A stretch of DNA of 64,000 bases from an uncultured Acidobacteriota bacterium. Lineage in GTDB: Bacteria; Acidobacteriota; Thermoanaerobaculia; Gp7-AA8. Of the stretch, positions 25,000-42,438 are shown in pieces. Under the pieces are notes generated by a model. It did no database searches and was not told the DNA's origin. It worked only from the letters and a program-made list of their open reading frames with translations. Each line of letters starts with the position of its first letter. Positions within the stretch are counted from its first letter, which is position 1. Both the position numbers and the translations under genes were made by a program. Location of the stretch: the NCBI GenBank assembly GCA_963822445.1, contig CAWGHO010000002.1, positions 1,984,001 to 2,048,000 on the forward strand, in the 5' to 3' direction.

Positions 25000-25815
25000 T
25001 CAACCGCTGCCGAGAACGAGCTTGCGGAACATCCAGTGAATCAACCTCGGAGGCAGCGGAAGCAACACGATGAGCATGAGGATGCTGAAAGCGATCCCGG
25101 GCGTCAGTTCGTAACCGTAGTGCCGAAGGGCGTGGATCTTCAGACGGAGCGTGTCGCGCAGCGCGATCTTCAATCGCAGGTTTTTCCCCGACTCCTCGTG
25201 GATGCGATACGAAATCAACGCCTCGGGAAAGTTGTAGAACCTGCCATGCCGCGCGAGCCGCAACCAGAGGTCGTAATCTTCGGCCCACGGGAATTCATCG
25301 GTGTAGCCGCCGGCTGCGATCAGCGCGTCGCGCCGGGCCATCGTCGATGGCTGGGCGATGCAATTCATTCTCAATAGCGTGCGCTTGATCTCGTCGTCGT
25401 ACTCCGGATACTTGCGAAACCCGACCTCATTGGAATCGGCATCGACGAGGCGCAACGCCGATCCGACCAGAACGTGATCCGGATGTTCGCGGAGGAACGC
25501 GATCTGTTTCTCGAACCGTCCCGGCTCGCAGTAGTCATCGGCATCGATCATGGCGAACAGCTCGCCGCGCGCTTCCGCGAGGCCACGCTCGCGCGAGCGG
25601 GCGATGCCCTGACGCGTCTGATTGATGATCCGGATTCGCGGGTCACGGAACGTCGCGACGATGCGCTCGCTCTCGGCGGGATCGCCGTCATTGATGATCA
25701 GGAATTCGAATTCGCCGAACGACTGGGCGAGAGTTGTGGCGATGGCCTGATCGAGGTGGCGGCGGTCGACCTTGTAGAACGTCGTGAAGACCGTCAGTGG
25801 TGGGTTAGCGGCCAT
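25000..25815 (-). CDS. Family 2 glycosyltransferase
   Basis: IINDGD, ARGELFAMIDADD, AEDYDLWLR. Confidence 0.9.
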   Translation of the reverse strand: MAANPPLTVFTTFYKVDRRHLDQAIATTLAQSFGEFEFLIINDGDPAESERIVATFRDPRIRIINQTRQGIARSRERGLAEARGELFAMIDADDYCEPGRFEKQIAFLREHPDHVLVGSALRLVDADSNEVGFRKYPEYDDEIKRTLLRMNCIAQPSTMARRDALIAAGGYTDEFPWAEDYDLWLRLARHGRFYNFPEALISYRIHEESGKNLRLKIALRDTLRLKIHALRHYGYELTPGIAFSILMLIVLLPLPPRLIHWMFRKLVLGSG

Positions 25816-26791
25816 ATCCCGACGAACGATAGATGGTCTCGACCACTTCCAGCGCCGCACGCGCGTCGTCGAGATTGGCGGCGGGCCGCCGGCGCTGCGC
25901 AATGTCGTCGATCAACTCCGCCATCTCCAGTTCCCACGAACGATCGTTGCGGGGGTACTCCCACGCCGTCGTTTCCGGCGGGCCCATCTCCGGCAGCATG
26001 CGGTAGTGGGTGATGCGCTCGATCCCGTAACTGCCGCCGAGGCCCTCGATCTGGATCTTGCCGGTGCGACCGTAGATCTCGAACGAGAAGATGTTCTTCC
26101 ATTCGGTGCAGCTGACGTGCAGGAACGCAATGCGGCGCGCGCTCGTGGTGAGCGTCATGAAGGCGTTGTCGTCCACCGGCATGTCCCAGAAAAACGTGCG
26201 GGCGACGCCGTCGACGCCGGTGAAATCGCCAAGGAACCAGCGGGCCAGATCGATGAGATGCACGCCCTGATCGATGAGCTCTCCGCCACCGGAAAGTGCC
26301 GGGTTCGCGCGCCATTCCTTTTCGTATCCCAGGCGGCCGCCATGGCCGTAGCGTCCGCGGACGAACATCAGTTCCCCGACGGCGCCGGCATCGACCAGCT
26401 CGCGTGCCTTGATAAGCGCGGGATGGTAGCGATGGTTGAACCCGGCGCGAACGCGAACGTCGTGTGTCCGCTCGAGTGCGATGAGGCGCTCGATCTCCGC
26501 AACGGATCGACCACCCGGTTTCTCGAGGAGCACATGCTTGCCGGCCTGGATGGCGGCGGCGGCAATCTCCGCGAGGGCCTCGTTCGTTGTCGCGACCACG
26601 ACGGCGTCGACGCCATCGTGATCGAGAATCTCGCGCCAGTCGCGCGCCAGCTTGGCGCCGGTCGCCGAGGCGAGAGCGATCGCGCGATCGAGGTTGGCGT
26701 CGGCGCAGGCAATCAACCTCGCACCGGCGAGCGCGCCGGCGCGCCTCGCGCCGATCACCCCGCAGCCGATGATGCCGACGCCCAGCGTCAA
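25805..26791 (-). CDS. Gfo/Idh/MocA oxidoreductase (LmbZ-like)
   Basis: GIIGCGVIG, HVLLEKP, GFNHRYHP, YGHGGRLGYEKEWR, GGGELIDQGVHLID; TTG start overlaps the SDR stop. Confidence 0.88.
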   Translation of the reverse strand: MTLGVGIIGCGVIGARRAGALAGARLIACADANLDRAIALASATGAKLARDWREILDHDGVDAVVVATTNEALAEIAAAAIQAGKHVLLEKPGGRSVAEIERLIALERTHDVRVRAGFNHRYHPALIKARELVDAGAVGELMFVRGRYGHGGRLGYEKEWRANPALSGGGELIDQGVHLIDLARWFLGDFTGVDGVARTFFWDMPVDDNAFMTLTTSARRIAFLHVSCTEWKNIFSFEIYGRTGKIQIEGLGGSYGIERITHYRMLPEMGPPETTAWEYPRNDRSWELEMAELIDDIAQRRRPAANLDDARAALEVVETIYRSSGYGR

Positions 26792-27633
26792 CGCGAGCCC
26801 CAGTCCGGCACCACACGCCGGAGTGTGTAAATGTCGCTGCCACGCATCTCTTCGGCGCGCGAGGGGAGCTCGCGCCAGGGATCCCATGGCGCGCTGATGA
26901 GCTTTCCGGTGATCCCATCGCTCTCTGCCGAAGCGAGGAAGACGGCACAGGCGGCCGCCTCCTCGATGGACTGCCCCCCCGACGTCTGTTGCGCGAGCGC
27001 GCGGGCGTAGACCTCTTCGCCCACGCGCTCGGGTCCGGCTGTCAGCACGTCGTCGAGAAGACGTGTGTTCAGCGCGCCGGGCGCCAGGGCGTTGACCGAG
27101 ATGCGATGTTCCTTCAGTTCTTCGGCGATCGTTTCGGCGAAACGGACGGATGCCGCCTTTGACGCGGCGTAGGCGGACATGCGCGGCATCGGTTTGGTCG
27201 CGCCGCCGCCCGAGATCTGGATGATCTTTCCGTAGCCGCGGCGCTTCATGTGTGGCACCACGGCGCGGCAAAGCAGGACTGAACCGAGCAGGTTCACTTC
27301 GATCGCGGCGCGCCATTCATCCCAATCCGTCTCTTCGAACGGGCCCTTCGGCCCGTGGATGCCGGCGTTGTTGACGAGGACGTCGACACCGCCGAATGCG
27401 CTCACGGCCTCCGCGACGAGCGATTCGACGTCGTCCGGGCTGGCGACGTTGGCGCGGACAGCGAGGACGTCGCTGCCGAGGACGCGCCTTGCCTCCTGGA
27501 GTGAAGCCTCGTCGCGGCCGCAGATGGCGATGCGTGCACCCTCTGCGGCGAAGGCCTGGGCGATGGCCAACCCGAGTCCCTGAGAGCCGCCAGTGATGAT
27601 CGCGGCACGACCTTCCAGCCTCAGTTGCTTCAA
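26788..27633 (-). CDS. Short-chain dehydrogenase/reductase
   Basis: TGGSQGLG, VNNAG, YAASK. Confidence 0.9.
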   Translation of the reverse strand: MKQLRLEGRAAIITGGSQGLGLAIAQAFAAEGARIAICGRDEASLQEARRVLGSDVLAVRANVASPDDVESLVAEAVSAFGGVDVLVNNAGIHGPKGPFEETDWDEWRAAIEVNLLGSVLLCRAVVPHMKRRGYGKIIQISGGGATKPMPRMSAYAASKAASVRFAETIAEELKEHRISVNALAPGALNTRLLDDVLTAGPERVGEEVYARALAQQTSGGQSIEEAAACAVFLASAESDGITGKLISAPWDPWRELPSRAEEMRGSDIYTLRRVVPDWGSR

Positions 27634-27644
27634 GGCGGGCGATC

Positions 27645-28592
27645 TTAGCGCGAAGGGCTGGCCGTCTGCAGGTAGGTCAGGGTGCGCAGCACGGCCTCGC
27701 GGATCGACAGCGACGGCTTCCAACCGAGGCCGCGGATGCGGCTGCAGTCGAGAAAGATGAACGGGTTATCGCCGACCCATCCGCGCGAGCCGCCGCTGTA
27801 GGTCAGGCGTGGGCTGATGCCGAGCGCTTCGGTGATCCATCCCACCGAGTCGTTGACCTCGCAGTACTCGTCGGTGCCGAGGTTGAAGATGTTCACCTTC
27901 TGAGCCGCGTTGTCCAGCGCCAGAAGCATGGCGTCGATGCAGTCCTGAACGTAGAGGTACGACTTCTTCTGATGCCCGTCGCCGAGGATGTGCAGCTCGC
28001 CGGGGCTCTCGCGCAGCTTGCGATAGAAGTCGAAGACATGTCCGTGCGTGTATCGCTCACCGAGAATCGAGACGAACCGGAAAATGAAGCCCTGAAACCC
28101 GTAGGCCTCGCAATGGGCCTCGATCAACCCCTCGCCAGCCAGTTTTGACGAGGCATAGAAGGACGTCTGCACCGGAAAGGGAGCGTCTTCCGGTGTCGGG
28201 ATGACGCCGGCTTCGCCGTACACCGATCCGGTCGACGAGAACGCGATGCGGCGGACGCCGTTGTTGCGCATCGCTTCGAGGACGTTGAACGTGGCGATCG
28301 TGTTCTGTTCCAGGTCACGTCGCGGATCGAGTGCGCCGAAGCGGACGTCGGCATTTGCGGCGAGATGAAAGACGATCTCGCAGCCGCGCATCGCTTCGGT
28401 GAGGGCGGCAGTGTCGAGCGTGTCGCCACGGACGATCCTGGCGCGCGGCGAGGTCCGGGCGGAGGTGAGGAAATCCTCGCGACCGGTGGAGAAATTGTCG
28501 TAAATGACGACCTCGTCGCCGCGCTCGAGCAGACGGTCGGTGAGGTTGCTTCCGATGAAGCCGGCGCCTCCGGTGATGAAGATCCTGGTCAT
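27645..28592 (-). CDS. NAD-dependent NDP-sugar epimerase/dehydratase (LmbM-like)
   Basis: TGGAGFIG, HLAANADVRFG, SSTGSVYG, YASSK. Confidence 0.92.
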   Translation of the reverse strand: MTRIFITGGAGFIGSNLTDRLLERGDEVVIYDNFSTGREDFLTSARTSPRARIVRGDTLDTAALTEAMRGCEIVFHLAANADVRFGALDPRRDLEQNTIATFNVLEAMRNNGVRRIAFSSTGSVYGEAGVIPTPEDAPFPVQTSFYASSKLAGEGLIEAHCEAYGFQGFIFRFVSILGERYTHGHVFDFYRKLRESPGELHILGDGHQKKSYLYVQDCIDAMLLALDNAAQKVNIFNLGTDEYCEVNDSVGWITEALGISPRLTYSGGSRGWVGDNPFIFLDCSRIRGLGWKPSLSIREAVLRTLTYLQTASPSR

Positions 28593-28643
28593 TACGGACG
28601 GCGAGCGAGTATACGGGAAGCTTCTGCTACTCTGCGCTCCTTC

Positions 28644-30503
28644 ATGCTCATCGTGCTGTCGGTGCTCGCGTTCCTGTTCTTTGGATGGGAGAGCGCGAGA
28701 GTTCTGGCGCGCAAGCATGAGAGCGGCCCATTCGAGCATGCCACGTGGGCGGCCGTCATCGCCGTAGCGTTATGGCTGGGAAGCGTCTGGGCTCTGGCGC
28801 TGGCTAAGCTGATGATCCCGTGGGTGCTGTTGACGCGCAGCGCCGTCGTGGCCGTCCTGGCGGTCGTCATGCGGCGGCGTTGGGGCGGCCACAAACCGCC
28901 CGCCGTTGCTCCCAAATACCTGCTTCTGCTAGCACCCATCGCGCTCTGGATGGTCTTCGTGATGTGGCGAGGGACGATCATTCCGCCGCTGACGCACGAC
29001 GCGCTGGCGTACCACCTCCCGAAGGCGGTCATGTATGCGCGCGCCGGCGGTTTCGAGGTTTTAGAAGCGCTCGATCCGCGCATTCGCGACATTCCGGCAA
29101 GCTACGAGATGCTGCTCGCCGAGAGTCTTGTCCTCGAAGGGAACGACGACCTGACCGAATGGCATAGCACGCTGTTCTATCTCTTGTTCGCCGTGGCGGC
29201 GGGGGCGCTTGCCGAGCGTTGGTGGCGCGGACGGGAGCTGGGTGCAGCGGCGGCATGTCTCCTGACCGCGGGCGTGCCGGTGGTGCTCCTCGGCAGCGGA
29301 CTGCACAAGAACGATCTGATGATCGGGTGGGCGGTCGTGGCGGCACTGGTGGCGGCGGGACGATGGCTCACTACCGGAGAGCGATTCTCGCTCCTGCTGT
29401 CGATCACCGCCTTCGCCATCGCGGTGGGGACCAAGCCCCAGGGGGGATTGCTGGCGCTGGCGATCACACCGTTCCTGGCGTGGCGCTGGTGGCGGATGCC
29501 GCGGAGATGGCGCGAGCTCGCGATCGCCGTGCCCTTCGCGGTCGCGGCGTTTTTTCTGCTGGGCGGCGTCGTTTACGTCACCACGCCGCCGACTACCGGA
29601 CAAACGCCGATCGTGTACGGCGACTGGAGCAATCTCTGGCAAGGGCCCTGGGTGCTGCTCGCGGCGCCGTTCTCGCCGAACCCATTCGCGTTGCGGGTGC
29701 CGTGGGAAACGACGTCCTGGTTCTGGCGCAAGTACGAGATCTATTTCTCGCACGCGGGCGTGCCGTTCGTCCTCTGCGCATTGGCCCTGCCGCTCGTTCT
29801 CGCGCGGATCCGTGGTTCGGAAGGCCCGGCGTTCGAGAGGATCGCCGTGACAGTCGCAAGCGTCATCACGGTTGCGATCATGCTTCCGGTGGTCTTCACG
29901 CCGCACGGTCTCTACACAGTGTCCCTGCCGCGCTACGTGGTGTTCCTCTACCCCGTCGCGTTCGCGGCGGTGATTCCGGCAATGACGATGCGTGCGGGGC
30001 GTGGTGTCGTGGTCGGTTCGCTGGTCGTCTTCGTCTGGTACGCGATCGAGAACGGCACGCGGGACACGTTCGTCCCGCCCCGATACCTGAAGTATGCGAT
30101 CGAGCATCGTGGCACGCGGGTCGTGGCCTTCGAACCGAATCGGGCCGCAAGCGTGCTCGATCGCGCGGCGGGACCGCACGAAACGGTCGCCTTCGACGCC
30201 GGGTTCGGCTCGTGGCTGCATCCGGCGTTCGGCCGCGAGCTGACGCGTAAGCTGGTGGTGATCCCGCAGGACGGCGCGATTCCTGATGAGGCGGATTGGG
30301 TGGTGGTGGACCGCGCCTGGAGCATCATCTGGGGCCATCCCGACCTTCGCGATCTCAGCCAGACGCGCTATCTTCTCGGGCGAGGTTGGCCGCTCCCGGA
30401 GGACCTGCGCGTCGTGCACGCGCTTCGCCGCGACGAGCGCTTCGAGACGGTGTTCTACAATCCGAGGATCAACCAGGCCGTCTTCCGTCGCGTCCACAAA
30501 TGA
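28644..30503 (+). CDS. GT-C-like multi-TM membrane protein
   Basis: HDALAYHLPKA, KNDL, AVGTK motifs; many TMs. Confidence 0.7.
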   Translation: MLIVLSVLAFLFFGWESARVLARKHESGPFEHATWAAVIAVALWLGSVWALALAKLMIPWVLLTRSAVVAVLAVVMRRRWGGHKPPAVAPKYLLLLAPIALWMVFVMWRGTIIPPLTHDALAYHLPKAVMYARAGGFEVLEALDPRIRDIPASYEMLLAESLVLEGNDDLTEWHSTLFYLLFAVAAGALAERWWRGRELGAAAACLLTAGVPVVLLGSGLHKNDLMIGWAVVAALVAAGRWLTTGERFSLLLSITAFAIAVGTKPQGGLLALAITPFLAWRWWRMPRRWRELAIAVPFAVAAFFLLGGVVYVTTPPTTGQTPIVYGDWSNLWQGPWVLLAAPFSPNPFALRVPWETTSWFWRKYEIYFSHAGVPFVLCALALPLVLARIRGSEGPAFERIAVTVASVITVAIMLPVVFTPHGLYTVSLPRYVVFLYPVAFAAVIPAMTMRAGRGVVVGSLVVFVWYAIENGTRDTFVPPRYLKYAIEHRGTRVVAFEPNRAASVLDRAAGPHETVAFDAGFGSWLHPAFGRELTRKLVVIPQDGAIPDEADWVVVDRAWSIIWGHPDLRDLSQTRYLLGRGWPLPEDLRVVHALRRDERFETVFYNPRINQAVFRRVHK

Positions 30504-31177
30504 GCACTCGGGTATTCATTGTCGTTCCCGCCTACAACGAGGCGGCAGCCATAGGCGCGGTGGTGCGCACCGTGCGCAAAGTCTGGACGAACGTGGTCGT
30601 GGTGGATGACGGCTCGGCCGACGAGACTGCAGCGGAGGCGCGCGGGGCCGGCGCGACCGTCCTGCGCCACATCTTCAACCGCGGTCAGGGTGCTGCGCTG
30701 CAGACCGGGATCGACTACAGCCTGCGGCGCGGCGCGGACGTCATCGTCACATTCGACGCCGACGGCCAGCATCGTGTCGAGGACGTACGAAAGCTCCTCG
30801 ACGCGCTCTCCGTCAGCGGTGCCGACATCGCCATCGGCTCGCGCTTCCTTGGAAGCCCGAAGAACATCCCCATCCTCCGCCGGGCAGTGCTCCGCATCGC
30901 CACGGTCTTCATGCGCTTCACTTCCGGCGTCCCGCTGACCGACGCGCACAATGGACTCCGCGCATTCACCGCGTCGGCGGCGCGGCGGATTCACATCACA
31001 CTCGACGGCATGGCTCACGCGAGCGAGATCGTCGACCAGATCTACTGGAATGACCTCGAGGTAGTCGAAGTGCCGGTCGTCATCGAGTACACGGAATACT
31101 CGCGCACGAAAGGACAGTCTGGATTCGCCGCGATCCGCATTGCGTTCGACTATCTGCTCAAGCGATGGCTACGTTGA
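30500..31177 (+). CDS. DPM1-like GT2 (polyprenol-phosphate glycosyltransferase)
   Basis: VPAYNE, VDDGSAD, NRGQGAAL, FDADGQH, GSRF, TDAHNGLR. Confidence 0.9.
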   Translation: MSTRVFIVVPAYNEAAAIGAVVRTVRKVWTNVVVVDDGSADETAAEARGAGATVLRHIFNRGQGAALQTGIDYSLRRGADVIVTFDADGQHRVEDVRKLLDALSVSGADIAIGSRFLGSPKNIPILRRAVLRIATVFMRFTSGVPLTDAHNGLRAFTASAARRIHITLDGMAHASEIVDQIYWNDLEVVEVPVVIEYTEYSRTKGQSGFAAIRIAFDYLLKRWLR

Positions 31178-31563
31178 CCACCTTCCAGCTGATCGTCCTG
31201 CCGTTCATCGCCCTCGTGATCGTGGTGACTGGAATCGCGACGGCGCGCAATCGCATCGGGCGCCGCACCGGCGTGGCCTGGATCGTCCTGTGGCTTGCCG
31301 CCGCGATCTTCATCGCCCGACCCGACTATCTGGTGACGCTGGCGAACCTCCTCGGCATCGGACGAGGGGCCGATCTCGCGCTCTACGCGTCGATCCTTTT
31401 CACGTTCGCAGGATTCTTCGTGCTGTACCTGCGATACAGGCGGGTCACGGAACAGCTCACTGCCATCGTCCGGCACCTGGCCATTGCCGAGGCCGAGCGG
31501 AAAGCCGAGAAAGCCGACGCGCCGGCCGAGGCGTTGTCTCGAGAACAGACCGAAACGTGCTGA
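31165..31563 (+). CDS. DUF2304-like small membrane partner of the GT2
   Basis: Three TMs, LANLLGIGRGADL, ..TAIVRHLAI; overlaps the GT2 stop. Confidence 0.8.
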   Translation: MATLTTFQLIVLPFIALVIVVTGIATARNRIGRRTGVAWIVLWLAAAIFIARPDYLVTLANLLGIGRGADLALYASILFTFAGFFVLYLRYRRVTEQLTAIVRHLAIAEAERKAEKADAPAEALSREQTETC

Positions 31564-32270
31564 AGAATTTTTTCACCAACCTGTACGCCGCGGCGTCGAA
31601 CCTCAACCGCGCCAACATCACCGCGTTACTGCGGCGGGGGAGCGGCGGGAAACCGGTCGAGCGGTTGCTCGATCTCGGCTGTGACGACGGCGTGTGGAGC
31701 CTCAATCTCGCTCGGGCGACCGGCGCCGCCGAGGTGCACGGCGTGGAGATCGTCCCCGAGGCGGCGGAAAAGGCGGAAGCGCTGGGAGTACGCGTGTGGA
31801 GGCTCAATCTCAACGCGAAGCTGGACGAGCTGCCGAGCAACCACTATGACCTCATCCACGCCAACCAGGTCATCGAGCACGTGACGAACGTCGACATGTT
31901 CGTTTCGGAGGTCTACCGTCTGCTGAAGCCGGGGGGCTATGCCGTGATCAGCACCGAGAACGGAAGCAGCTGGCACAACGTCTTCGCCGCGATCATGGGG
32001 TGGCAGATATTCTCCCTCACGAACGTATCCGAGAAGATCGCGGGCCTCGGCAATCCGTGCGCGATCCAGCGCGGCAGTGAAGCGTTCGCCGCGACCTGGA
32101 CGCACAAGACGATCTTCAACTACCGCGGACTCATCGAGATGTTCGAGGTCCACGGCTTCCGCGACATCGCCATGAGCGGGGCCGGCTACTTCCCGTTGCC
32201 GGCGCGGCTCGGCACTCTCGATGTGCGCCACAGCGCGTTCATCACCATCGGTGCGCGGAAGGAAAAATAG
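31557..32270 (+). CDS. Class I SAM-dependent methyltransferase
   Basis: LDLGCDDG, NQVIEH, LKPGG. Confidence 0.88.
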   Translation: MLKNFFTNLYAAASNLNRANITALLRRGSGGKPVERLLDLGCDDGVWSLNLARATGAAEVHGVEIVPEAAEKAEALGVRVWRLNLNAKLDELPSNHYDLIHANQVIEHVTNVDMFVSEVYRLLKPGGYAVISTENGSSWHNVFAAIMGWQIFSLTNVSEKIAGLGNPCAIQRGSEAFAATWTHKTIFNYRGLIEMFEVHGFRDIAMSGAGYFPLPARLGTLDVRHSAFITIGARKEK

Positions 32271-32303: not shown

Positions 32304-33017
32304 GTGATGGTCCCTCAACTCAAAATATCCATTTACGCCGACGGTGCCGACGTGCGCGACATGATTGCCGCCCGCGACGGCGGCCTCGTGAAAGGCTTCA
32401 CCACCAACCCGACCCTGATGCGGAAGTGCGGCGTCGCCGATTACGCCGCATTTGCCCGCGAGGCGTTGGACGCAACCGGCGGGATGCCGATCTCCTTCGA
32501 AGTCTTCGCCGACGACTTCGACGAGATGGAGCGCCAGGCGAAGCTCATCGCCACCTGGGGCGAGCCGGTCTTCGTGAAGATCCCCATCACGAACACGAAA
32601 GGGGAGTCGGCCATCCCGCTGATCAAACGGCTCGCCGATGCAGGCGTAAAGCTGAACGTGACCGCGATTCTCACCCTCGATCAGGTTCGGGCAGTGGTCG
32701 ACGCGCTGAATCCCGATATTCCCGCGATCGTCTCCGTGTTCGCGGGGCGCATCGCCGATACCGGTCGCGATCCCGTTCCACTCATGCGAGAGGCCGCTGA
32801 GATCTGCGCCGCGAAACCAAAAGCGGAACTGCTCTGGGCCAGTCCTCGCGAGTTGCTGAACATCTTTCAGGCCGAGGAGTGCGGCTGCCGCATCATCACC
32901 GTCACGTCGGACATCCTCAAGAAGCTGGCCATGGTCGGCAAGTCGCTCGACGAGCTGTCGCTGGACACGGTGAAGATGTTCTACAACGACGCCTCCGCGG
33001 CCGGATTCAAGCTGTGA
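32304..33017 (+). CDS. Short transaldolase (glycan-cluster type)
   Basis: YADGAD, GFTTNPTL, VFVKIP, NVTA, SVFAGRIAD. Confidence 0.92.
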   Translation: MMVPQLKISIYADGADVRDMIAARDGGLVKGFTTNPTLMRKCGVADYAAFAREALDATGGMPISFEVFADDFDEMERQAKLIATWGEPVFVKIPITNTKGESAIPLIKRLADAGVKLNVTAILTLDQVRAVVDALNPDIPAIVSVFAGRIADTGRDPVPLMREAAEICAAKPKAELLWASPRELLNIFQAEECGCRIITVTSDILKKLAMVGKSLDELSLDTVKMFYNDASAAGFKL

Positions 33018-34015: not shown

Positions 34016-34018
34016 TTT

Positions 34019-34993: not shown

Positions 34994-35016
34994 CGGGGTA
35001 ACATAACCCCCTCGCC

Positions 35017-36336
35017 ATGGCCCCTCAACTCAAAATGTCGAAACGATCGATCGGCATCCTCGGCGGCGGCATCTCCGGAATCGCGCTCGCCGCTCATCTC
35101 GGCGAGGACGTCGAGGTCGTCGAGAAGAGCTCCCGCATCGGCGGCTTGTGCGGCACGATCGTCGAGGACGGCTTCACCTTCGACGCGGCAGGCCCGCACA
35201 TCATGTTCAGCAAGAACAAGGAAGTCCTGAACCTGATGATCAGCGTCCTCGGCGACAACGTCCATCAGAACCGCCGCGAGAACCGCATCTACTTCAAAGG
35301 GAACCTGGTCAAGTATCCCTTCGAGAACGACCTGGCCGCGCTGCCGAAGCAGGACAACTTCGAGTGCATTTACGAGTACATCGTCAATCCGCGGGCCGGT
35401 GAGACTCCGGCGAGTCTCGCGGACTGGTCCTACGCGACCTTCGGCGCCGGGATCTCGGAGAAGTACTTCATCCCCTACAACCGCAAGATCTGGAACTACG
35501 ACCCGCAGAAGATCGGGCTCGAGTTCGTGTCCCGCATTCCGAAGCCGCCGATGGAAGACGTGCTGAAGTCTTCGATCGGCATTTCGACCGAGGGGTATCT
35601 GCATCAGTTGTACTACTCGTATCCGACCCATGGCGGATTCGAGTCGATCGTGAAGGCCTTCGCCGAGCGGGTCAAAGGCGACATCCGGACGAACTGGGCG
35701 GTCGCGTCAGTCGAGAAAGACGGGAACGGTTGGCGGGTGACGTCGGCGGATGGCGACGAGCGGCATTACGAGACGCTCGTGTCGACGTTGCCGATTCACG
35801 AACTGCTGAAAGTCTGGAAAGACGCGCCGGCGGCGGCACACGAAACCGCGGCGAAGCTCCGGTACAACTCGCTGGTCAACATCCTCATCGGCTGCAACAC
35901 CGATCCCGGTCACAACTACACGGCGCTGTACGTCCCCGATCCGGAGATCATGTTTCACCGGCTCTCCTTTCCGAAGGCATTCGGCGAACAATGCGTGCCG
36001 CCGGGCGGCTCGTCGATCATGGCCGAGATCACGACGAACGAAGGCGATGGCATCTGGGAGACGAGCGATGACGCGCTGATCGCGCGGGCCGTCGACGAGA
36101 TCGAGCGGATCGGCTTTGTCGATCGCCAGAGCATCGTGTACACGCGGGTCGTCCGTTTTCTCTACGGCTACCCGGTCTACGACCTCGAGTACCGCCGTAA
36201 TGTCACGGAGATGCGCGAAGCCGTCGCGGCGACGGGATTGCGCCTTCTCGGGCGGTTCGCGCAGTTCGACTACATCAACTCGGACGTGTGCATCGAGAGG
36301 GCGCTGGCCATGGCCGGCGAGCTTCGCGATGCGTGA
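35017..36336 (+). CDS. FAD-dependent oxidoreductase, NDP-pyranose mutase-like
   Basis: GGGISG, GGLC, FDAAGPH, PYNRKIW, YPVY, GRFAQFDYINSD. Confidence 0.75.
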   Translation: MAPQLKMSKRSIGILGGGISGIALAAHLGEDVEVVEKSSRIGGLCGTIVEDGFTFDAAGPHIMFSKNKEVLNLMISVLGDNVHQNRRENRIYFKGNLVKYPFENDLAALPKQDNFECIYEYIVNPRAGETPASLADWSYATFGAGISEKYFIPYNRKIWNYDPQKIGLEFVSRIPKPPMEDVLKSSIGISTEGYLHQLYYSYPTHGGFESIVKAFAERVKGDIRTNWAVASVEKDGNGWRVTSADGDERHYETLVSTLPIHELLKVWKDAPAAAHETAAKLRYNSLVNILIGCNTDPGHNYTALYVPDPEIMFHRLSFPKAFGEQCVPPGGSSIMAEITTNEGDGIWETSDDALIARAVDEIERIGFVDRQSIVYTRVVRFLYGYPVYDLEYRRNVTEMREAVAATGLRLLGRFAQFDYINSDVCIERALAMAGELRDA

Positions 36337-37072
36337 GCGGGAGCACTACCTCTACCACGAGGACGTCAACGAGGCGCTGCTGAGACTCTGGGGAAAACGG
36401 ACCGGCCTGCGCGTGCTCGACGTCGGTTGCGGCTTCGCCACGACCAGCGCGCGGATTCAGAAGCTCGGCAACGACGTGACGGGAATCGACGCCAGTCCGG
36501 AAATCGTCAGCGTCGCGCGCCAGCGGCTCGGTCGAGTCGTGCACGCGGACCTCGAAGACTTCGAAACGGTCGCCGCGGAGTTGGGGTCGGTCACGTTCGA
36601 CGTCGTGATCTTCGCGGACGTTCTCGAGCATCTGGTCTGGCCGGTTAGCACGCTGCGCCGGTACCTGCGGTTCCTTCGAGACGGTGGCACGGTCATCGTC
36701 TCGCTGCCGAACGTCGGTCTCTGGTCCGTGCGATTCGGCCATCTCTTCGGCAATTGGGACTACGCCGAGACCGGCGTGCTCGATCGCACGCATCTGCGGT
36801 TCTTCACGCGAAAGAGCGCGAAGTGGCTGCTCGATCAAGCCGGGCTGGAACCCATTCGGACGACGTACAACCCCGGGCTCGTGCGTCCGTTGGTGCCGCT
36901 GGCCAAGAAGTTTCTCGCGCCGGGCGAGAGTTCCGATCCGTCCGCGCTCATGAATTCGACGCCGTACCGGCTCTATCTCAGGACGATTCATCCGATCGAG
37001 CGCACCATCGCTTCGCTCTGGCCGGGGATGCTCGCATTTCAGATGATCTACGAGGCGAAACGGAAAGCATGA
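36329..37072 (+). CDS. Class I SAM-dependent methyltransferase
   Basis: VLDVGCG, ADVLEHL, SLPNV, GVLDRTHLRFFT. Confidence 0.88.
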   Translation: MREREHYLYHEDVNEALLRLWGKRTGLRVLDVGCGFATTSARIQKLGNDVTGIDASPEIVSVARQRLGRVVHADLEDFETVAAELGSVTFDVVIFADVLEHLVWPVSTLRRYLRFLRDGGTVIVSLPNVGLWSVRFGHLFGNWDYAETGVLDRTHLRFFTRKSAKWLLDQAGLEPIRTTYNPGLVRPLVPLAKKFLAPGESSDPSALMNSTPYRLYLRTIHPIERTIASLWPGMLAFQMIYEAKRKA

Positions 37073-37725
37073 AACTGACGGTCTCGATGATCACCATGAA
37101 CGAGGAGGGTGCCGTCGCGAAGGTGGTGAAGGACATTCGCGCGGTCGCACCGGACGCGGAGATTCTGCTCGTCGATTCGAGCAAGGACCGCACAGCGGAA
37201 ATCGCCGAAGGGCTGGGTTGCCGGGTGATCAAGCAGTTCCCGCCGCAGGGCTACGGGCCGGCAATGGACCGCGCGGTGCGCGAGGCCTCGGGCGACATCG
37301 TGGTTACCCTCGACTGCGACGACACGTATCCGGTCGAAGTCATCCCGCAGCTCGTGAAAATGATCGACGAGGGCTACGACCTGGTGAACACGACCCGCGT
37401 GCACAAGCGCCCGAAGGCGATGCCCTTCGCGAATTTCATCGCCAACCGCGTCTTCGCCCTCGGCGCGAGGATCCTCCACGGGATCAAGACCACCGACGTG
37501 CACAGCGGCATGCGCGCGTATCGCAAGTCGATGATCGACGCCGTGAAGTGGACGGCCAAAGGGGCCGCGCTGCCGGTGGACATGCTGATCATTCCGTTCC
37601 GGCGCGGCTACAAAGTGGCCGAGGTGAAGATCGATTACCGGGAACGGATCGGCGATACGACCCTGCACCGGTGGTCGAGCACGATCTGGACGTTCAGGCG
37701 GCTATGGAACGCGCGTCGAGCTTGA
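37069..37725 (+). CDS. DPM1-like GT2
   Basis: MNEEGA, VDSSKDRT, GYGPA, LDCDDTYP, DVHSGMRAY, YRERIG. Confidence 0.88.
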   Translation: MKLTVSMITMNEEGAVAKVVKDIRAVAPDAEILLVDSSKDRTAEIAEGLGCRVIKQFPPQGYGPAMDRAVREASGDIVVTLDCDDTYPVEVIPQLVKMIDEGYDLVNTTRVHKRPKAMPFANFIANRVFALGARILHGIKTTDVHSGMRAYRKSMIDAVKWTAKGAALPVDMLIIPFRRGYKVAEVKIDYRERIGDTTLHRWSSTIWTFRRLWNARRA

Positions 37726-37736
37726 TTCGCTCCCTG

Positions 37737-37842
37737 AGTTCACCCCGCGCGAAGACGCGGGGTCAACGGAGCAGCCTTCGTGACGTGTGCACCGTGCGTT
37801 GCCGGTGCGCCATTGACCCCGCGTCTGCGCGCGGGGTGAACT
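37737..37842. repeat. REPIN-like element copy 2
   Basis: 37737-37766 agttcaccccgcgcgaagacgcggggtcaa versus 37813-37842, 29/30 complementary. Confidence 0.9.
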
Positions 37843-37855
37843 GGGGAAGCCGCCG

Positions 37856-38527
37856 ATGACCAGAGTCGCCATCCTCTGCGGCGGCTTCGGCACCCGCCTC
37901 GGCGAGCTGACCCGCGGCCTGCCCAAGCCGATGATCGAGATCGGAAGCCGGCCCTATCTCGAACGGGTCATCGACTCTTTCGCGGAGCGCGGCCTTCGCG
38001 ATTTCGTTCTGCTCACCGGTCACCGCGCGGAGGTAATCGAAGGGCACTTCGGCGACGGCTCGCGCTTCGGCGTGACCATCGCCTACAGCCGCGAGACCGA
38101 GCCGCTCGGCACGGGCGGGGCGTTGCGCGAGGCCCGCGACCTCCTCGGCGACCGGTTCATTCTCACCTTCGGCGATGTGCTCCGCCGCTTCGACTACGAT
38201 CGCTTCGTGGAGCAGCACATCGGCAACTGCCTCGCGGTCTACCCGCGGCGCACCAGCGGCAACGCGGATGTCGCGGAAGGCCACGTCGTCCGCTTCTGCA
38301 AGCACGCGCCGGAGCTGCCGTACGTCGACGCGGGGTTCGCGGTGATGCTGGCGGGAACGATCGATCTGCTGCCCGAAGCGGGGCCATGCTCGTTTGAAGA
38401 AGTCGTGTACGCGAACCTGGCCGAGCACGGGAGCCTCGAAGCGGAGATCGTCGATCACGACTTCTTCGACATCGGCACGCCGGAAGAGCTGGCGGCGACG
38501 CGCGCGGCACTGGAGACCGATTCTTGA
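37856..38527 (+). CDS. Sugar-1-phosphate nucleotidyltransferase (HddC/LmbO-like)
   Basis: ILCGGFGTRL, PKPM, EPLGTGGAL, FFDIGTPE. Confidence 0.9.
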   Translation: MTRVAILCGGFGTRLGELTRGLPKPMIEIGSRPYLERVIDSFAERGLRDFVLLTGHRAEVIEGHFGDGSRFGVTIAYSRETEPLGTGGALREARDLLGDRFILTFGDVLRRFDYDRFVEQHIGNCLAVYPRRTSGNADVAEGHVVRFCKHAPELPYVDAGFAVMLAGTIDLLPEAGPCSFEEVVYANLAEHGSLEAEIVDHDFFDIGTPEELAATRAALETDS

Positions 38528-39483
38528 GAATTCTCGTGACCGGCGCGGCCGGTTTCATCGCCTCGAACCTCATTCCCCGCCTGCTCGCGCGCGGCGATGT
38601 CGTAGCCGGCGCCGACAACTTCTTCCTCGGCAAGCGGGCCTACGTCGCGAAGCATCCCAACTTTCACTTTCACGAGATGGATCTGCTCGATCTCGATGGC
38701 TTGATCGCGCTGATGAGCGACTTCAAGCCGGATCGCGTCTGGCATCTCGCCGCGAACAGCGACATCAGCTACGGAACGAGGTACACCGACTTCGATCTCA
38801 AGGGCGGCACGCTGGTCACGTACAACGTGCTGGAAGCCATGCGCCGCACGGACGTGAAAGAGATCGTCTTCTCCAGCAGCGGGGCGGTCTACGGCGAGCC
38901 GACGGTCATGCCGACGCCCGAGGATTACGGGCCGATTCTGCCGATCTCGCTTTATGCGGCGAGCAAGGCCGCCTGCGAGGCGCTGATCACCGCGTACGCG
39001 CACAACTACGATCAGTACGCGTGGATCTACCGCTTTGGAAACATCGTCGGTCCCAACCCGACCCATGGCGTGATTCACGACTTCGTGCTCCGCCTCCGCG
39101 AGGAGAAAACAAAACTGACCGTGCTTGGCGACGGCTCGCAGGCCAAGCCGTACGTGTACGTCGAGGATTGCCTCGACGGCATGGAGTTCGGCGTCGCCAA
39201 CGTCAGGGAGCACATCAACTACTACAACCTCGCCGTCGACGATCAGACCTCCGTCCGGGAGATCACCGACTGGACGATCGAAGCCATGGGCATCGACCGC
39301 AACACCATCGACGTGCAGTACGGCGACAGCCCGCGCGGCTGGCGCGGCGACGTCCCGCAGGTAAAGCTCGACACGCGGAAGATGACCGCGCTGGGCTGGC
39401 GGCCGACGCTCTCCAGCAACGAATCTGTTCGGCGGACGATCGTCGAGGTGGTCGAGCAGTTCCGGAGCGGACCGCTGACATGA
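38524..39483 (+). CDS. NAD-dependent NDP-sugar epimerase/dehydratase
   Basis: TGAAGFIAS, HLAANSDISYG, YAASK; TTG start. Confidence 0.92.
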   Translation: MRILVTGAAGFIASNLIPRLLARGDVVAGADNFFLGKRAYVAKHPNFHFHEMDLLDLDGLIALMSDFKPDRVWHLAANSDISYGTRYTDFDLKGGTLVTYNVLEAMRRTDVKEIVFSSSGAVYGEPTVMPTPEDYGPILPISLYAASKAACEALITAYAHNYDQYAWIYRFGNIVGPNPTHGVIHDFVLRLREEKTKLTVLGDGSQAKPYVYVEDCLDGMEFGVANVREHINYYNLAVDDQTSVREITDWTIEAMGIDRNTIDVQYGDSPRGWRGDVPQVKLDTRKMTALGWRPTLSSNESVRRTIVEVVEQFRSGPLT

Positions 39484-41321
39484 GCCAGGTCCGGATCGCG
39501 ATCGCGTTGGCGATCAGCGGCGCTACGGCGCGGCTCGTCATGATGCAGTGGCTTCATCCACTCAACATCGACGAGCGGGAGTTCTACCGTGCCGCGCGTT
39601 GGATTGCCGAAGGACGCCTGCCGTTCCGCGACTTCTGGGAACACCACACGCCGTTCTCCTGGTTCGTCTACGCGCCATTCACGCTGCTGACCGACAGCCC
39701 CGGCGTGGCCGCGGTACTGGTGATGCGCTGGGTGCAGGTGCCGGTGTGGATCGCGACCTTCTGGCTCGTCAATGTCTGGATGCGCAACGCCGGCGTGGAG
39801 CGGTTCGCACGCTGGAGCGCGATGACCTTGGCGCTCTGCAGCTCGTTTCTGATGCTGCCGGCGGTGGAGTTCCGTGTCGATCCGCTGGCCTGCATGTGTT
39901 TCATGGCTGCGCTCGTCTGTTTGCAGAGGTCGGCGTTCCTGGGCGCAGGCATCGCCTTGGGCCTGGCGGTGTTGACGAACCTCCGCCTCGTTCCGCTCGT
40001 CGCCGTCACCACGCTGGTGCTGCTGATCGCGGACACGCAGGAGCGGACCTGGCGTGCCGCGGCGCAGCGCGTACGGGTCATCGCCGGCGGCGCCATCACG
40101 GCCGCGGCCGCAGCGATGTACTTCGTGGTCACCGGCTCGTGGTCGGCGATGGTCCGCTATCTCTATATCGAGAACACGATCGGCTATGGGGAAGCGCAGC
40201 TGGTCGGGATGATCGGTGGCGGCGTGCACCGCTTCCTCCTCGTGCCTTTCGGCATTCGCATCATCACCACCGATCGATTTTTCGACGTGGCGGCCATCGA
40301 TGTTGGCGGAGCGACGCTGCTGATTCTGAGCTACATCGGCCTGGTGCGGGCCATCCGCTCGTGGCGTACTCCCGATGATTTCTGGGTGCTGGCCTTCGTA
40401 CAGACCGTCAATCTCGTCGTCGTCCTGGGGTTGCCCTTCATTCACAACTACCACACCGAGCTTTTCGGGGTGTTGATGATTCCACTGGCGGCGTTGGTCA
40501 TCGCGCGCATTCCGCGCCGGGCGATGGTGATGGCCGTGCTCGCGCTGGCGTGGTGCGTCAGTCTCTTCGCGTCGCTGTTCCGCGGGAAGGAGCTCGATCT
40601 CGCATATCAGGACCTCATCCTTCGGGAGGTCCATGCACGCACGCGGCCGGGCGACAAGGTCTGGAGCGGAATGGTCTGGTCGCTGCGACGTGAGCCGGCG
40701 TATCACTTCTGGTTCCTTCCCGGCATCGTGCGGCCGCTGGTGAGGCTCGGGCACGCACCGCCGTACGTACCCGTCGAGCCGCCCGCAGCCGTCGTGGCCG
40801 ACTTCTGGTCCCTCGGCTGGTTCATCACCGTGCAGCCCGATGTCGGGCTCTACTTCATCCGGCACTACATGCCGGTATGGCACGACCTCTGGCTTCCCGG
40901 GCTAAACGCGCGACTGCGACCGAACACCGAGCCGGCGCAGTGGGCCGTGCCGATGGACGGGACGTATCGGGTGTACGTCTCGCGCGAGCTGGCCCGGCAT
41001 CGCTGGTACCGCAGGCCGATGTCCGTCGCGGCGGTGGAGGCTACGTACTCGCCGTATCTGGCGTTCACGTTGCCTGACCCGGGATCGGACGCGCGCGTGC
41101 AGTGGTGGATCGACGGAAAACCGGTCGTCCCCGGAGAGGCTGTCGATCTGCGTCGCGGACAACGCGTTGCGGCGGCGCTGCGGGAAGGCGAGCCCGTGGC
41201 TGTGCTTCTCTTGCGCGGCGACGACCGCAAGCTGTTCCGGCTGCCACCGCCCGGGATCTCGCTCGAGGGTTCAGCTTCGAAGGTCACGCACGTTCCGCAA
41301 TTCGGAGTGCGGATCGAATGA
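39480..41321 (+). CDS. GT-C-like membrane glycosyltransferase
   Basis: DEREFYRAARWIAEGRLPFRDFWEHHTP, EFRVDPL, many TMs. Confidence 0.72.
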   Translation: MSQVRIAIALAISGATARLVMMQWLHPLNIDEREFYRAARWIAEGRLPFRDFWEHHTPFSWFVYAPFTLLTDSPGVAAVLVMRWVQVPVWIATFWLVNVWMRNAGVERFARWSAMTLALCSSFLMLPAVEFRVDPLACMCFMAALVCLQRSAFLGAGIALGLAVLTNLRLVPLVAVTTLVLLIADTQERTWRAAAQRVRVIAGGAITAAAAAMYFVVTGSWSAMVRYLYIENTIGYGEAQLVGMIGGGVHRFLLVPFGIRIITTDRFFDVAAIDVGGATLLILSYIGLVRAIRSWRTPDDFWVLAFVQTVNLVVVLGLPFIHNYHTELFGVLMIPLAALVIARIPRRAMVMAVLALAWCVSLFASLFRGKELDLAYQDLILREVHARTRPGDKVWSGMVWSLRREPAYHFWFLPGIVRPLVRLGHAPPYVPVEPPAAVVADFWSLGWFITVQPDVGLYFIRHYMPVWHDLWLPGLNARLRPNTEPAQWAVPMDGTYRVYVSRELARHRWYRRPMSVAAVEATYSPYLAFTLPDPGSDARVQWWIDGKPVVPGEAVDLRRGQRVAAALREGEPVAVLLLRGDDRKLFRLPPPGISLEGSASKVTHVPQFGVRIE

Positions 41322-41869
41322 AACGCGCCCTCTTCCTCGATCGCGACGGCGTGCTCGACGAGCTCGTGTTCTACGAGTCCAGCGGGGAGTGGGAGGCGCC
41401 ACGCGTCGTCGAGGACGTGCGGATGATCGACGGCGCGGCCGCGGCTCTCGAGCGATTCGTCGATGCGGGCTGGATGCTGTTCCTCATCACCAATCAGCCG
41501 AACGTGGCCAAAGGGAAAGCGTCTCGCGCGGACGTCGAGAGAGTGCACAAGGCCGTGATGCGCGCACTGAACGTGCCGGTCGCGCACAGCTTCATCTGCT
41601 TTCATCAGGCCGACGACGCCTGCGCCTGCCGCAAGCCGAAGCCGTTTTTCCTGCACAAGGCGCAAACCGCGTTCGGCGTCGATCTCGCGCAGTCATGGAT
41701 GGTCGGCGACCAGGACAGCGATCTTCTGTGTGGGCGCGCGGCGGGCTGCAAGGTCGCGCTGATCGAGCATCGCGGCTCGGAGCACAAGCGGGGGAACGTC
41801 GAGCCGGATTTGCGGGTGCGCGATCTCGACGAGCTGGCTAGCGCACTGATTCCCACTTCGTCTGGGTGA
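41318..41869 (+). CDS. gmhB: HAD-IIIA heptose/octose bisphosphate phosphatase
   Basis: LFLDRDGV, ITNQP, CFH..DDACACRKPKP, MVGDQDSD. Confidence 0.88.
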   Translation: MKRALFLDRDGVLDELVFYESSGEWEAPRVVEDVRMIDGAAAALERFVDAGWMLFLITNQPNVAKGKASRADVERVHKAVMRALNVPVAHSFICFHQADDACACRKPKPFFLHKAQTAFGVDLAQSWMVGDQDSDLLCGRAAGCKVALIEHRGSEHKRGNVEPDLRVRDLDELASALIPTSSG

Positions 41870-42438
41870 CCTTCAGCGCTGGGTGCGACACCAGGAGGTG
41901 CCACACCACCGCCGCGAGCCCCTCCGTGTGCGGTGTGATGCGCTCCGTCGAAACGACCGGGATGAGCACGCAAGCGTCGGCGACCTGTTTCGTGTAGCCG
42001 CCGTCCTTGCCGACGATGCCGAAGACCTTCGCGCCGCGGCCGCGGGCTTCGTCGATGGCGCGCACGAGATTCACCGAGACGTTCTTCTCGACGTTTCCGC
42101 CGCCGACGGAGAAGACCAGCAGGGCGTCTTTGTCGTTCATGCGCGAGCCTTTCAGCCACTCGGAGAAGCAGCTGTCCCAGCCCTCGTCGTTCACGCGGGC
42201 GGTTAGCTCGGAGACGTTGTCGGTCGGCGTGTATGCCTCGAACTGGCAGATCTTGCGGAAGTCGTTGACGGCGTGACTGGCGTGTCCTGCGGAGCCGCCG
42301 ACGCCGAGGATGAAGAGGCGGCCGCCGGCTTCCCGGGCGGCGGCGAGGCCGGCGGCGACGCGATCGATGGCATCGGCGATCGATGCGGCGAATGACTTCG
42401 ATGCTCTCCTCGAGAAACGCGCGGCTGAACGACTCCAT
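41838..42438 (-). CDS. gmhA: SIS-domain phosphoheptose isomerase family protein (one +1 frameshift near 42378)
   Basis: MESFSRAFLEESIEVIRRID joins GVGGSAGHASHAVNDFRK, TARVNDEGW, SVGGG, TPHTE. Confidence 0.82.

Follow-up and report, generated by a model that had tools for sequence, protein, structure and literature searches.

We analyzed a window of 64,000 nt from an uncultured Acidobacteriota bacterium (assembly GCA_963822445.1, contig CAWGHO010000002.1, here contig C2; the window is C2:1,984,001-2,048,000). Its G+C content is approximately 64%, and it carries a surface-glycan locus with genes for a nucleoside diphosphate (NDP) higher-carbon sugar. The locus lies between a ribosomal RNA operon (14251-19606) and ribosomal-protein and EF-G genes that start at ~45.6 kb. 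A first-pass annotation, made from the sequence alone, had placed a surface-glycan locus at 25805-42438; its nature was confirmed, whereas its extent was not, the real locus being larger (~20.4-44.1 kb, that is, ~24 kb). At its center is a five-gene cassette encoding a transaldolase, a SIS isomerase, a GHMP kinase, a HAD phosphatase, and a nucleotidyltransferase, all within 32304-42438, and the transaldolase stop codon overlaps the kinase start codon (33014-33017). Beyond the sugar-pathway genes, the locus holds five GT2 glycosyltransferase genes, two methyltransferases, a flavin adenine dinucleotide (FAD) oxidoreductase, and six polytopic membrane proteins (Table 1).

Window proteins were assigned to families with Pfam and NCBIfam profiles at model-specific bit cut-offs. 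Every gene family listed in the first-pass annotation was found at or adjoining its proposed position, and the inventory comprised counterparts of LmbR, N, P, K, O, M, and Z of the lincosamide sugar pathway, as had been claimed. The noncanonical isomerase motif GVGGSAGHASHAVND was likewise present. Genes of the LmbL-like (UDP-glucose dehydrogenase family) and LmbS-like (DegT) kinds had been reported as missing from the window, and tblastn with queries of both kinds agreed, matching the genome only at C2:686 kb and C1:846/868 kb.

Related cassettes were frequent elsewhere. A one-genome-per-species scan gave 462 transaldolase relatives, from which 80 loci were kept and compared with the window proteins by tblastn; completeness was counted only in the 35 loci with at least 8 kb on either side of the transaldolase, and related genomes counted here are nonindependent samples. 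The isomerase, kinase, phosphatase, and nucleotidyltransferase were all present in 14 of 14 close relatives. The 21 loci from other groups (Ignavibacteria, Melainabacteria, Margulisbacteria, Paceibacteria, Syntrophobacteraceae, Rhizobium, and Methanoperedens metagenome-assembled genomes, MAGs) contained the isomerase in 19 cases, the kinase in 17, the phosphatase in 18, the nucleotidyltransferase in 16, and all four in 15. The closest transaldolase relatives (73-89% identical) were Thermoanaerobaculia/Acidobacteriota MAGs, which places the window in this group. Across phyla, the transaldolase and the isomerase were 61-70% identical, and the other three enzymes were 22-53% identical. The cassette was also found on annotated plasmids of Lawsonia intracellularis and Rhizobium jaguaris (CCGE525) and in the cultured actinomycetes Rugosimonospora africana NBRC 104875 and Dactylosporangium siamense NBRC 106093. 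The five genes did not come together by chance, since the same set turns up as a unit in other genomes. We judge the window locus to encode a real NDP-higher-sugar pathway. The module is spread over many phyla and is no peculiarity of this one locus. Literature searches, which left subscription journals mostly outside their coverage, returned no paper on a surface-glycan cassette for a heptose or octose that includes a transaldolase, nor any on straight-chain octoses in surface glycans; the accessible part of PMC6849830 mentions the relevant terms separately, not as one cassette.

Table 1. Features of the flagged part of the surface-glycan locus and its immediate flanks (positions in the window; TM, transmembrane)
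Feature	Position	Strand	Basis
GT2 glycosyltransferase	25000..25902	-	PF00535 81.1 bits
Gfo/Idh/MocA oxidoreductase (LmbZ-like family), start codon uncertain	25805..~26833	-	PF01408, PF22725, PF02894
FabG-like short-chain dehydrogenase (SDR)	26788..27723	-	PF00106 188.8 bits
NAD-dependent epimerase/dehydratase (LmbM-like family)	27645..28739	-	PF01370 171.8 bits
Polytopic membrane protein, start uncertain	28365..30503	+	10 TM-like segments; no Pfam match
GT2 glycosyltransferase	30296..31177	+	PF00535 83.2 bits
S-adenosylmethionine (SAM)-dependent methyltransferase	31140..32270	+	PF13489 77.9 bits
Small transaldolase, TIGR02134 type, first cassette enzyme	32304..33017	+	PF00923; TIGR02134 348.8 bits (cut-off 281.95)
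GHMP sugar kinase (HddA/LmbP-like)	33014..34015	+	PF00288, PF08544
GT2 glycosyltransferase	34019..34993	-	PF00535 117.1 bits
FAD oxidoreductase (amine-oxidase/UDP-galactopyranose-mutase-like, PRK07208 type)	35017..36336	+	PF01593 85.9 bits; NF005548 202 bits (below cut-off 389)
SAM-dependent methyltransferase, start uncertain	36116..37072	+	PF13489 76.2 bits
GT2 glycosyltransferase	36754..37725 (open reading frame as listed)	+	PF00535 81 bits, residues 110-262
Sugar-1-phosphate nucleotidyltransferase (HddC/LmbO-like)	37856..38527	+	PF00483 72.5 bits
NAD-dependent epimerase/dehydratase	38524..39483	+	PF01370 151 bits
Polytopic membrane protein	39480..41321	+	9 TM-like segments; ATG at 39480; weak PF05007 (PIG-M) 21.2 bits (cut-off 23.4)
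HAD-IIIA sugar-bisphosphate phosphatase (GmhB/LmbK-like)	41318..41869	+	TIGR01656 104.3 bits (cut-off 84.15), TIGR01662 74.2 bits (cut-off 44.6)
SIS_2 sugar-phosphate isomerase, frameshifted	41838..42438	-	PF13580 37.4 bits (cut-off 27)
Polytopic membrane protein, start uncertain	42383..44125	+	9 TM-like segments; no Pfam match

Reference loci and the cassette isomerase

References for the lincosamide pathway were obtained by sampling 401 Streptomyces genomes with the window transaldolase, and loci were labeled lmb-like by gene content and order only. Six genomes carried a small transaldolase 28-32% identical to that of the window (loci L191-L196). A nucleotidyltransferase, a GHMP kinase, and a Gfo/Idh/MocA gene stood beside it in all six loci, a SIS isomerase in five (L192: only the start in the stretch examined), and an epimerase and a HAD phosphatase in four. 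In L196, the transaldolase and nucleotidyltransferase genes flank a DegT aminotransferase gene, and the epimerase is followed by a UDP-glucose-dehydrogenase-family gene and then a GT1 gene; L191 has a PmbA/TldD protein adjoining the transaldolase, an AMP-binding enzyme, a class I/II aminotransferase, and an O-methyltransferase. The order lmbK-L-M-N-Z-P-O-S-R-Q and its transcription units are given in the accessible part of PMC7014725, and functions of LmbR, N, K, and O are reported in those of PMC4351081, PMC5854111, and PMC7014725. The Streptomyces loci match the published lmb content and nearly its order. They are of two kinds (L191-L192 and L193-L196), mutually 35-50% identical. Since Lmb and Ccb proteins are closer to each other (59-71%, from the accessible part of PMC4351081) than the two kinds are, at most one kind is lmb/ccb proper. 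The four loci of the second kind (Streptomyces G119, G217, G384, and G188) have the order R-S-O-P-Z-N-M-L-K followed by a GT1 gene, and L196 has an ANT(2'')-like gene (PF10706) upstream; given its low identity to the first kind, it may belong to an undescribed octose-containing natural product.

The cassette isomerase is a member of the SIS_2 fold family, and its best solved relatives are phosphoheptose isomerases (E ~2e-11). On the GmhA model TIGR00441 it scored 55.3 bits (cut-off 209.45), and the GmhAs of five other Acidobacteriota scored 180-218 bits. No canonical GmhA was found in this genome, in which the best TIGR00441 match, at 55 bits, was the cassette isomerase itself. A tree of 28 rows was rooted on E. 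coli DiaA and included 14 cassette isomerases, five lmb-like isomerases, six acidobacterial GmhAs, E. coli GmhA, and an R. etli SIS protein. The cassette and lmb-like isomerases formed one clade (99/100), with the GmhAs outside. When eight sequences were added and the cassette rows were thinned (31 rows), all noncanonical isomerases fell in one clade (100/99), within which the cassette enzymes, the lmb-like enzymes, and two intermediates (L274 and L275) were grouped (93/91). Placement of the lmb-like isomerases with canonical GmhA was rejected by the approximately unbiased test (P = 0.014; log likelihood 19.8 lower), for a group defined after the tree had been viewed. The first-pass annotation had proposed such a tree as a check on its idea of an octose pathway, and the window enzyme fell with LmbN-like isomerases, canonical GmhA lying outside their clade.

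Sequence features pointed the same way. Aligned to the GmhA catalytic triad, whose histidine we take to be His180 in E. coli, the window isomerase reads Asp-Thr-His and the lmb-like isomerases read Asp-Ile-His. The triad is E-Q-H (E. coli Glu65, Gln172, and His) according to the accessible part of PMC4697000. The E65-to-D change and the loss of Q172 are common to cassette and lmb-like isomerases. In both, the STSGxS of GmhA and DiaA is replaced by FSVxGG...VS, with 6-9 additional residues, and both read S-H...D where GmhA reads Q-H...E. A second insertion, of 4 residues before TP..E, was found in the cassette and Streptomyces lmb-like isomerases, not in the two intermediates; both insertions are absent from GmhA and DiaA. 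Judged from its sequence, the cassette isomerase is kin of the LmbN-like isomerases and apart from canonical GmhA.

The cassette isomerase alone has a C-terminal extension ending in KWES, which neither GmhA nor the lmb-like enzymes have, and its stem in the tree is very long (3.05-3.87 changes per column). These two peculiarities, and the position of all five enzymes except the transaldolase outside every curated equivalog, would suit a pathway to some other NDP-sugar. Such a pathway could start from a different transaldolase acceptor (arabinose-5-phosphate, a hexose-6-phosphate giving a nonose, or a deoxy acceptor) or from an isomerase substrate that is neither sedoheptulose-7-phosphate nor octulose-8-phosphate. 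We regard this as improbable: nothing favors any particular alternative sugar, and the isomerase, kinase, phosphatase, and nucleotidyltransferase steps follow the logic common to the two known pathways.

The window copy of the isomerase gene is frameshifted. On the minus strand, an ATG at 42438 opens MESFSRAFLEESIEVIRRID, and an extra C at ~42378 then breaks the frame (+1, after codon 20), past which the protein continues ADAIDRVAAGL.... Five close relatives (L001, L007, L016, L018, and L032) read ...RRIDAEAIDR... in a single frame across this site. The extra C sits in a short repeat, ATCGATCGCC...ATCGATCGCG, which contains GATC; either a real mutation or an assembly error could account for it. 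A genuine one-base insertion in a decaying cassette copy would leave the pathway dead or impaired in this organism, in line with the intact reading frames of the relatives and with the lack of a second cassette-type isomerase among the genes found in this genome. We consider this unlikely. The remaining cassette genes each align to relatives as a single full-length match, the assembly consists of 3 contigs for 6.0 Mb, and short repeats with GATC, such as the one at this site, are typical places for long-read consensus errors. Among public sequencing runs, none was found that holds this stretch (best share of sampled words, 0.09).

Transaldolase linkage and the other cassette enzymes

The transaldolase was the only cassette enzyme to score over a curated equivalog (TIGR02134), and its 120 closest protein homologues (83-100% identical) were all labeled "transaldolase" or unlabeled. 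The genome carries a second, long-type transaldolase at C2:934710-935744 (PF00923, 287.6 bits). Because of this gene, the cassette transaldolase is an extra copy, additional to the housekeeping enzyme. Three other carriers that were checked (G484, G622, and G440) had one or two housekeeping transaldolases each besides the cassette copy. Since the carriers hold a housekeeping transaldolase, the cassette enzyme is not needed for the supply of sedoheptulose-7-phosphate.

Linkage was then counted from the isomerase. Among 301 Acidobacteriota genomes, 28 isomerase matches were obtained at E ≤ 1e-15, of which 22, including this genome, were cassette-type (51-100% identical) and six were more distant (35-44% identical). 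A TIGR02134 transaldolase (55-77% identical) lay within 10 kb in 15 of the 21 other cassette-type loci, and a divergent small transaldolase, 27-30% identical to that of the window, was found in three (L255 in G622, L268 in G440, and L272 in G578). The remaining three had no transaldolase, and in all of them the isomerase was less than 2 kb from a contig end. The transaldolase was therefore kept in 18 of 18 untruncated cassette-type loci, and its link to the isomerase is kept under selection. None of the five distant-isomerase loci examined had a transaldolase within 10 kb. Two distant-isomerase loci carry a long loop insertion (L274 and L275), and in L274 a small transaldolase is 17.6 kb away on the same contig. 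The link is strong for the cassette-type isomerase, but it is not absolute in the wider clade.

In a TalB-rooted tree, housekeeping small transaldolases and E. coli FsaA and FsaB formed one group (94/94), and the TIGR02134 enzymes, the three divergent cassette-linked enzymes, and the LmbR-like enzymes formed the other. The first-pass annotation had matched the window transaldolase to LmbR; this kinship did not hold at the level of subfamily, as the window copy is of TIGR02134 type and the LmbR-like enzymes belong to another subfamily. The divergent transaldolases of L255, L268, and L272 grouped with neither the housekeeping transaldolases nor TIGR02134. A TIGR02134-type transaldolase was also observed on a plasmid of Streptomyces sp. 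3211 (L085; NZ_CP020040.1, 350827-381519), between a D-arabinono-1,4-lactone oxidase and the hexitol phosphatase HxpB, with an adjoining major facilitator superfamily transporter, insertion sequence elements around it, and no cassette. Used as a query, this plasmid transaldolase gave 18 loci, none of which was an lmb cluster.

Quick trees were used for the kinase, phosphatase, and nucleotidyltransferase, three of the five families, and canonical references in the trees came from E. coli and Acidobacteriota only. On the HddA model NF049969 the kinase scored 129.7 bits (cut-off 600). Its tree resolved canonical-like, cassette, and lmb-like enzymes as three clades in a polytomy, the cassette clade being separate from near-canonical HddA-like kinases that scored 319-487 bits. 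None of the kinases in the 301 Acidobacteriota scored over the HddA cut-off, and six scored 281-487 bits; this sample included two genomes flagged as unpublished and otherwise unused (G553 and G425). The five of these six near-canonical HddA loci that were examined all had no transaldolase in flanks of 6-10 kb per side, two of the stretches ending at contig ends. This genome also carries a second HddA-like GHMP kinase of 624 amino acids outside the glycan locus (L234:8787-10661; C2:1200786-1202660), in which the kinase domain is followed by ~300 residues of no known family. It adjoins genes for an M23 peptidase, LolA, and tRNA-guanine transglycosylase, and a similar long form occurs in genomes of the same family.

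The phosphatase scored 105.6 bits on NF006506 (cut-off 178) and 78.1 bits on TIGR00213 (cut-off 149.6), both GmhB models, and passed the broader HAD-IIIA and histidinol-phosphatase-domain models (74.2 against 44.6 and 104.3 against 84.15 bits). In its tree, cassette, lmb-like, and R. etli enzymes formed a group (Shimodaira-Hasegawa-like approximate likelihood ratio test, SH-aLRT, 89) apart from the canonical references. The nucleotidyltransferase scored 90.3 bits on the HddC model NF049965 (cut-off 300) and also matched a generic mannose-1-phosphate guanylyltransferase model (NF052502, 112.3 bits) and a MurU model. A tree of 26 nucleotidyltransferases joined the window enzyme and three close relatives to six LmbO-like enzymes (SH-aLRT 97); cassette enzymes of other phyla and near-canonical enzymes fell elsewhere. 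The first-pass annotation had proposed trees of each enzyme and had stated that grouping with canonical GmhA, HddA, and HddC would count against an octose. No such grouping was found, and the scores were far under the NCBIfam cut-offs.

The same scores can be read differently, because the best named NCBIfam matches of the four enzymes are GmhA, HddA, GmhB, and HddC, although all are under the cut-offs. The product could then be an NDP-heptose (of the GDP-D-glycero-D-manno-heptose type or an epimer). The transaldolase would boost sedoheptulose-7-phosphate from fructose-6-phosphate and erythrose-4-phosphate, and the isomerase would be a GmhA variant still acting on that substrate. Bacterial surface glycans commonly contain heptoses, and spare copies of precursor-supply genes are frequent in glycan loci. 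The transaldolase is a full member of TIGR02134, a family annotated as ordinary transaldolase, and is not separable in the tree from stand-alone members. Canonical GmhA being absent, the cassette isomerase is the only GmhA-like protein in the genome. The kinase does not group with LmbP-like enzymes, a cassette-type kinase occurs in R. etli plasmids without any transaldolase, and the wider isomerase clade has members without one. Nevertheless, the isomerase clade, its two common insertions, and its changed triad point to LmbN-like enzymes and not to GmhA. A transaldolase that serves heptose supply also fits poorly with the five near-canonical HddA loci that lack one in the flanks examined, with carriers that already own a housekeeping copy, and with retention in 18 of 18 untruncated isomerase loci, in three of them through a divergent lineage. 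We consider a heptose a serious alternative, though less likely than an octose.

Tailoring genes and neighboring genes

A longer form of the cassette was observed in Methanoperedens MAGs and R. jaguaris, as a run of nine genes: epimerase, nucleotide-sugar dehydrogenase, SDR, Gfo/Idh/MocA, kinase, nucleotidyltransferase, isomerase, phosphatase, and transaldolase. The same families are present in Lawsonia in a different order. The LmbL-like dehydrogenase occurs in the fuller cassettes of nine relatives (L016, L018, L023, L031, L069, L076, L080, L086, and L198), and that of the nine-gene form is 29-35% identical to the LmbL-like gene of L196. The window, L025, and L032 lack the dehydrogenase, and their SDR and epimerase genes lie directly next to each other. 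The window Gfo gene is 35-41% identical to the LmbZ-like gene of lmb-like loci, 58-61% identical to its copies in Lawsonia and R. jaguaris, and 59% identical to those in Methanoperedens MAGs. The epimerase at 27645 is 40-42% identical to the lmb-like epimerase and 60-69% identical to those of Lawsonia, R. jaguaris, and Methanoperedens; the epimerase at 38524 is 42-44% identical to the epimerase of lmb-like loci. The FabG-like SDR accompanies the Gfo and epimerase genes in relatives and is proposed to be the ketoreductase of a tailoring module. By family and identity, eight of the nine Lmb sugar genes have predicted counterparts in the fuller cassette; the ninth encodes the aminotransferase, in whose place the cassette has an SDR. 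Wang et al. in 2020 reportedly assigned LmbM, LmbL, CcbZ, and CcbS to 6-epimerization, 6,8-dehydration, 4-epimerization, and 6-transamination, respectively. Conversion of GDP-octose to GDP-lincosamide by these four enzymes is described in the accessible part of PMC12945683.

Several of the remaining genes are also kept in relatives. Copies of the GT2 gene at 25000 (53-61% identical) adjoin the Gfo gene in L016, L018, L023, L025, L027, and L029. In close relatives, the FAD oxidoreductase is 67-86% identical and the GT2 at 36754 is 63-82% identical; the true start of the latter is probably near 37070, its domain beginning only at residue 110. The membrane proteins at 28365 and 42383 have copies in relatives that are 33-47% and 41-65% identical, respectively. 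Six large polytopic proteins were observed in the locus, three listed in Table 1 and three at 20428-21657, 21441-23195, and 23189-24967, with 7-10 TM-like segments each. They have no Pfam family, the sole partial match being the sub-cut-off similarity to PIG-M mannosyltransferase at 39480-41321, a protein that is possibly a GT-C-type transferase. With five GT2 genes as neighbors, the six are candidates for transferases or polymerases of an undescribed type that depend on lipid carriers.

Proposed pathway and comparison with known systems

From family membership and homology, we predict that the sugar is most likely of Lmb type, with eight carbons, a prediction that we believe and doubt in equal measure. 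The extra TIGR02134 transaldolase would move a C3 unit from fructose-6-phosphate or sedoheptulose-7-phosphate onto ribose-5-phosphate to give octulose-8-phosphate, which the LmbN-clade isomerase would convert to the aldose-8-phosphate. The GHMP kinase would phosphorylate C1, the HAD-IIIA phosphatase would remove the distal phosphate, and the LmbO-like nucleotidyltransferase would make the NDP-octose, probably in the GDP form. Through keto intermediates, hydroxyl configurations would be altered by both epimerases, the Gfo/Idh/MocA enzyme, and the FabG-like SDR, and O-methylation would be carried out by the two methyltransferases. Because the window has no LmbL-like dehydrogenase of the nine-gene form, no 8-deoxygenation is proposed here. 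A GT2 enzyme would attach the sugar to a lipid carrier, and one of the polytopic membrane transferases would deliver it to the outside of the cell; the NDP-higher-carbon sugar would in this way feed a surface glycan built by the GT2 enzymes and the large membrane transferases.

The strongest points in favor of an octose appear to be the isomerase clade with its insertions, the altered triad, the retained extra transaldolase, the LmbO-like nucleotidyltransferase, and the LmbM/L/Z-like tailoring set. A number of results weigh against it. The LmbR-like transaldolases, which are divergent and FSA/TalC-like, score 67 and 104 bits on TIGR02134 (cut-off 281.95) and join the cassette transaldolases at only 82/88. 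The latter are intermixed with stand-alone TIGR02134 enzymes (Companilactobacillus and the Streptomyces plasmid) and for this reason look like ordinary transaldolases. The kinase tree does not group cassette and Lmb enzymes, and the phosphatase grouping with LmbK-like enzymes is supported at only 89, with two canonical references. Some members of the noncanonical isomerase clade (R. etli plasmids and L278) have no neighboring transaldolase, and the 95%-complete genome of L275, which has the loop-insert isomerase, has only a long-type transaldolase and no small one. The lmb-like loci were identified from gene content and order only, and the assembled window sequence has a frameshift in the isomerase gene. 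The isomerase tree brings long branches together, a problem that does not affect the shared insertions.

A wider proposal, which we hold tentatively and with slightly more doubt than belief, is that the lincosamide sugar pathway has its primary-metabolism counterpart in the cassette and may even have evolved from it. The cassette would supply an NDP-activated straight-chain C8 aldose for surface glycans of Acidobacteriota, Ignavibacteria, Melainabacteria, candidate-phyla bacteria, Actinomycetota, Rhizobium, Lawsonia, and Methanoperedens archaea. The nine-gene form, with LmbL- and LmbZ-like genes and a reductase replacing the aminotransferase, would yield an 8-deoxy-octose, and octoses would be widespread, overlooked surface sugars. 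Should the product be an octose, a class of sugars that has until now been linked with a single antibiotic family would be a common building block of microbial surfaces in many phyla, and the lincosamide sugar genes would gain a plausible origin. If it is a heptose, the cassette represents a large uncharacterized branch of heptose enzymes with a remodeled isomerase active site and an obligatory transaldolase. The question is approachable, as the cassette occurs in cultured strains and comprises five soluble enzymes. The six lmb-like gene sets, the isomerase and nucleotidyltransferase kinship, the insertions and triad changes common to the two isomerase groups, the 18 of 18 transaldolase linkage, and the finding of a housekeeping transaldolase but no canonical GmhA in this genome are new here.

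Four known systems were compared with the window cassette. Stand-alone members of TIGR02134 ("transald_staph" in NCBIfam) from Ligilactobacillus, Lactobacillus, and Companilactobacillus are 55-59% identical to the window enzyme, which differs from them in being a second transaldolase whose gene overlaps a sugar kinase gene. The plasmid locus of R. etli and R. leguminosarum has a kinase that is 43% identical and of the same clade, as well as an epimerase, a GT2 gene, and a membrane protein, but it lacks a transaldolase, its isomerase has neither insertion, and its nucleotidyltransferase and phosphatase are fused. This locus (L197; NZ_CP020908.1, 22539-43420) was observed in 58 Rhizobium records, with a fusion of ~650 amino acids, and is a natural contrast to the cassette.

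The GmhA-HddA-GmhB-HddC heptose pathway has four enzyme families, the reaction order, and the surface-glycan setting in common with the window. However, the window enzymes score 55, 130, 106, and 90 bits where the cut-offs for these four are 209, 600, 178, and 300, the window isomerase falls outside the GmhA clade with a D-T-H triad in place of E-Q-H, and the five near-canonical heptose loci have no transaldolase in the flanks examined, whereas the window cassette has one built in.

The GDP-octose subpathway of lincosamide biosynthesis in Streptomyces has the same step logic, and seven of its nine families (R, N, P, K, O, M, and Z) are found in the window. Its isomerase is of the same clade and has in common with the window enzyme the two insertions, the E-to-D change, and the loss of Q. 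The window proteins are only 22-44% identical to the lmb-like ones, and the LmbR-like transaldolase is not of TIGR02134 type, whereas that of the window is. The lincosamide pathway has a DegT aminotransferase and LmbL; the window lacks both and has a FabG-like SDR where the aminotransferase would act. The lincosamide genes lie in an antibiotic cluster, whereas the window cassette lies in a surface-glycan locus with GT2 enzymes and membrane transferases.

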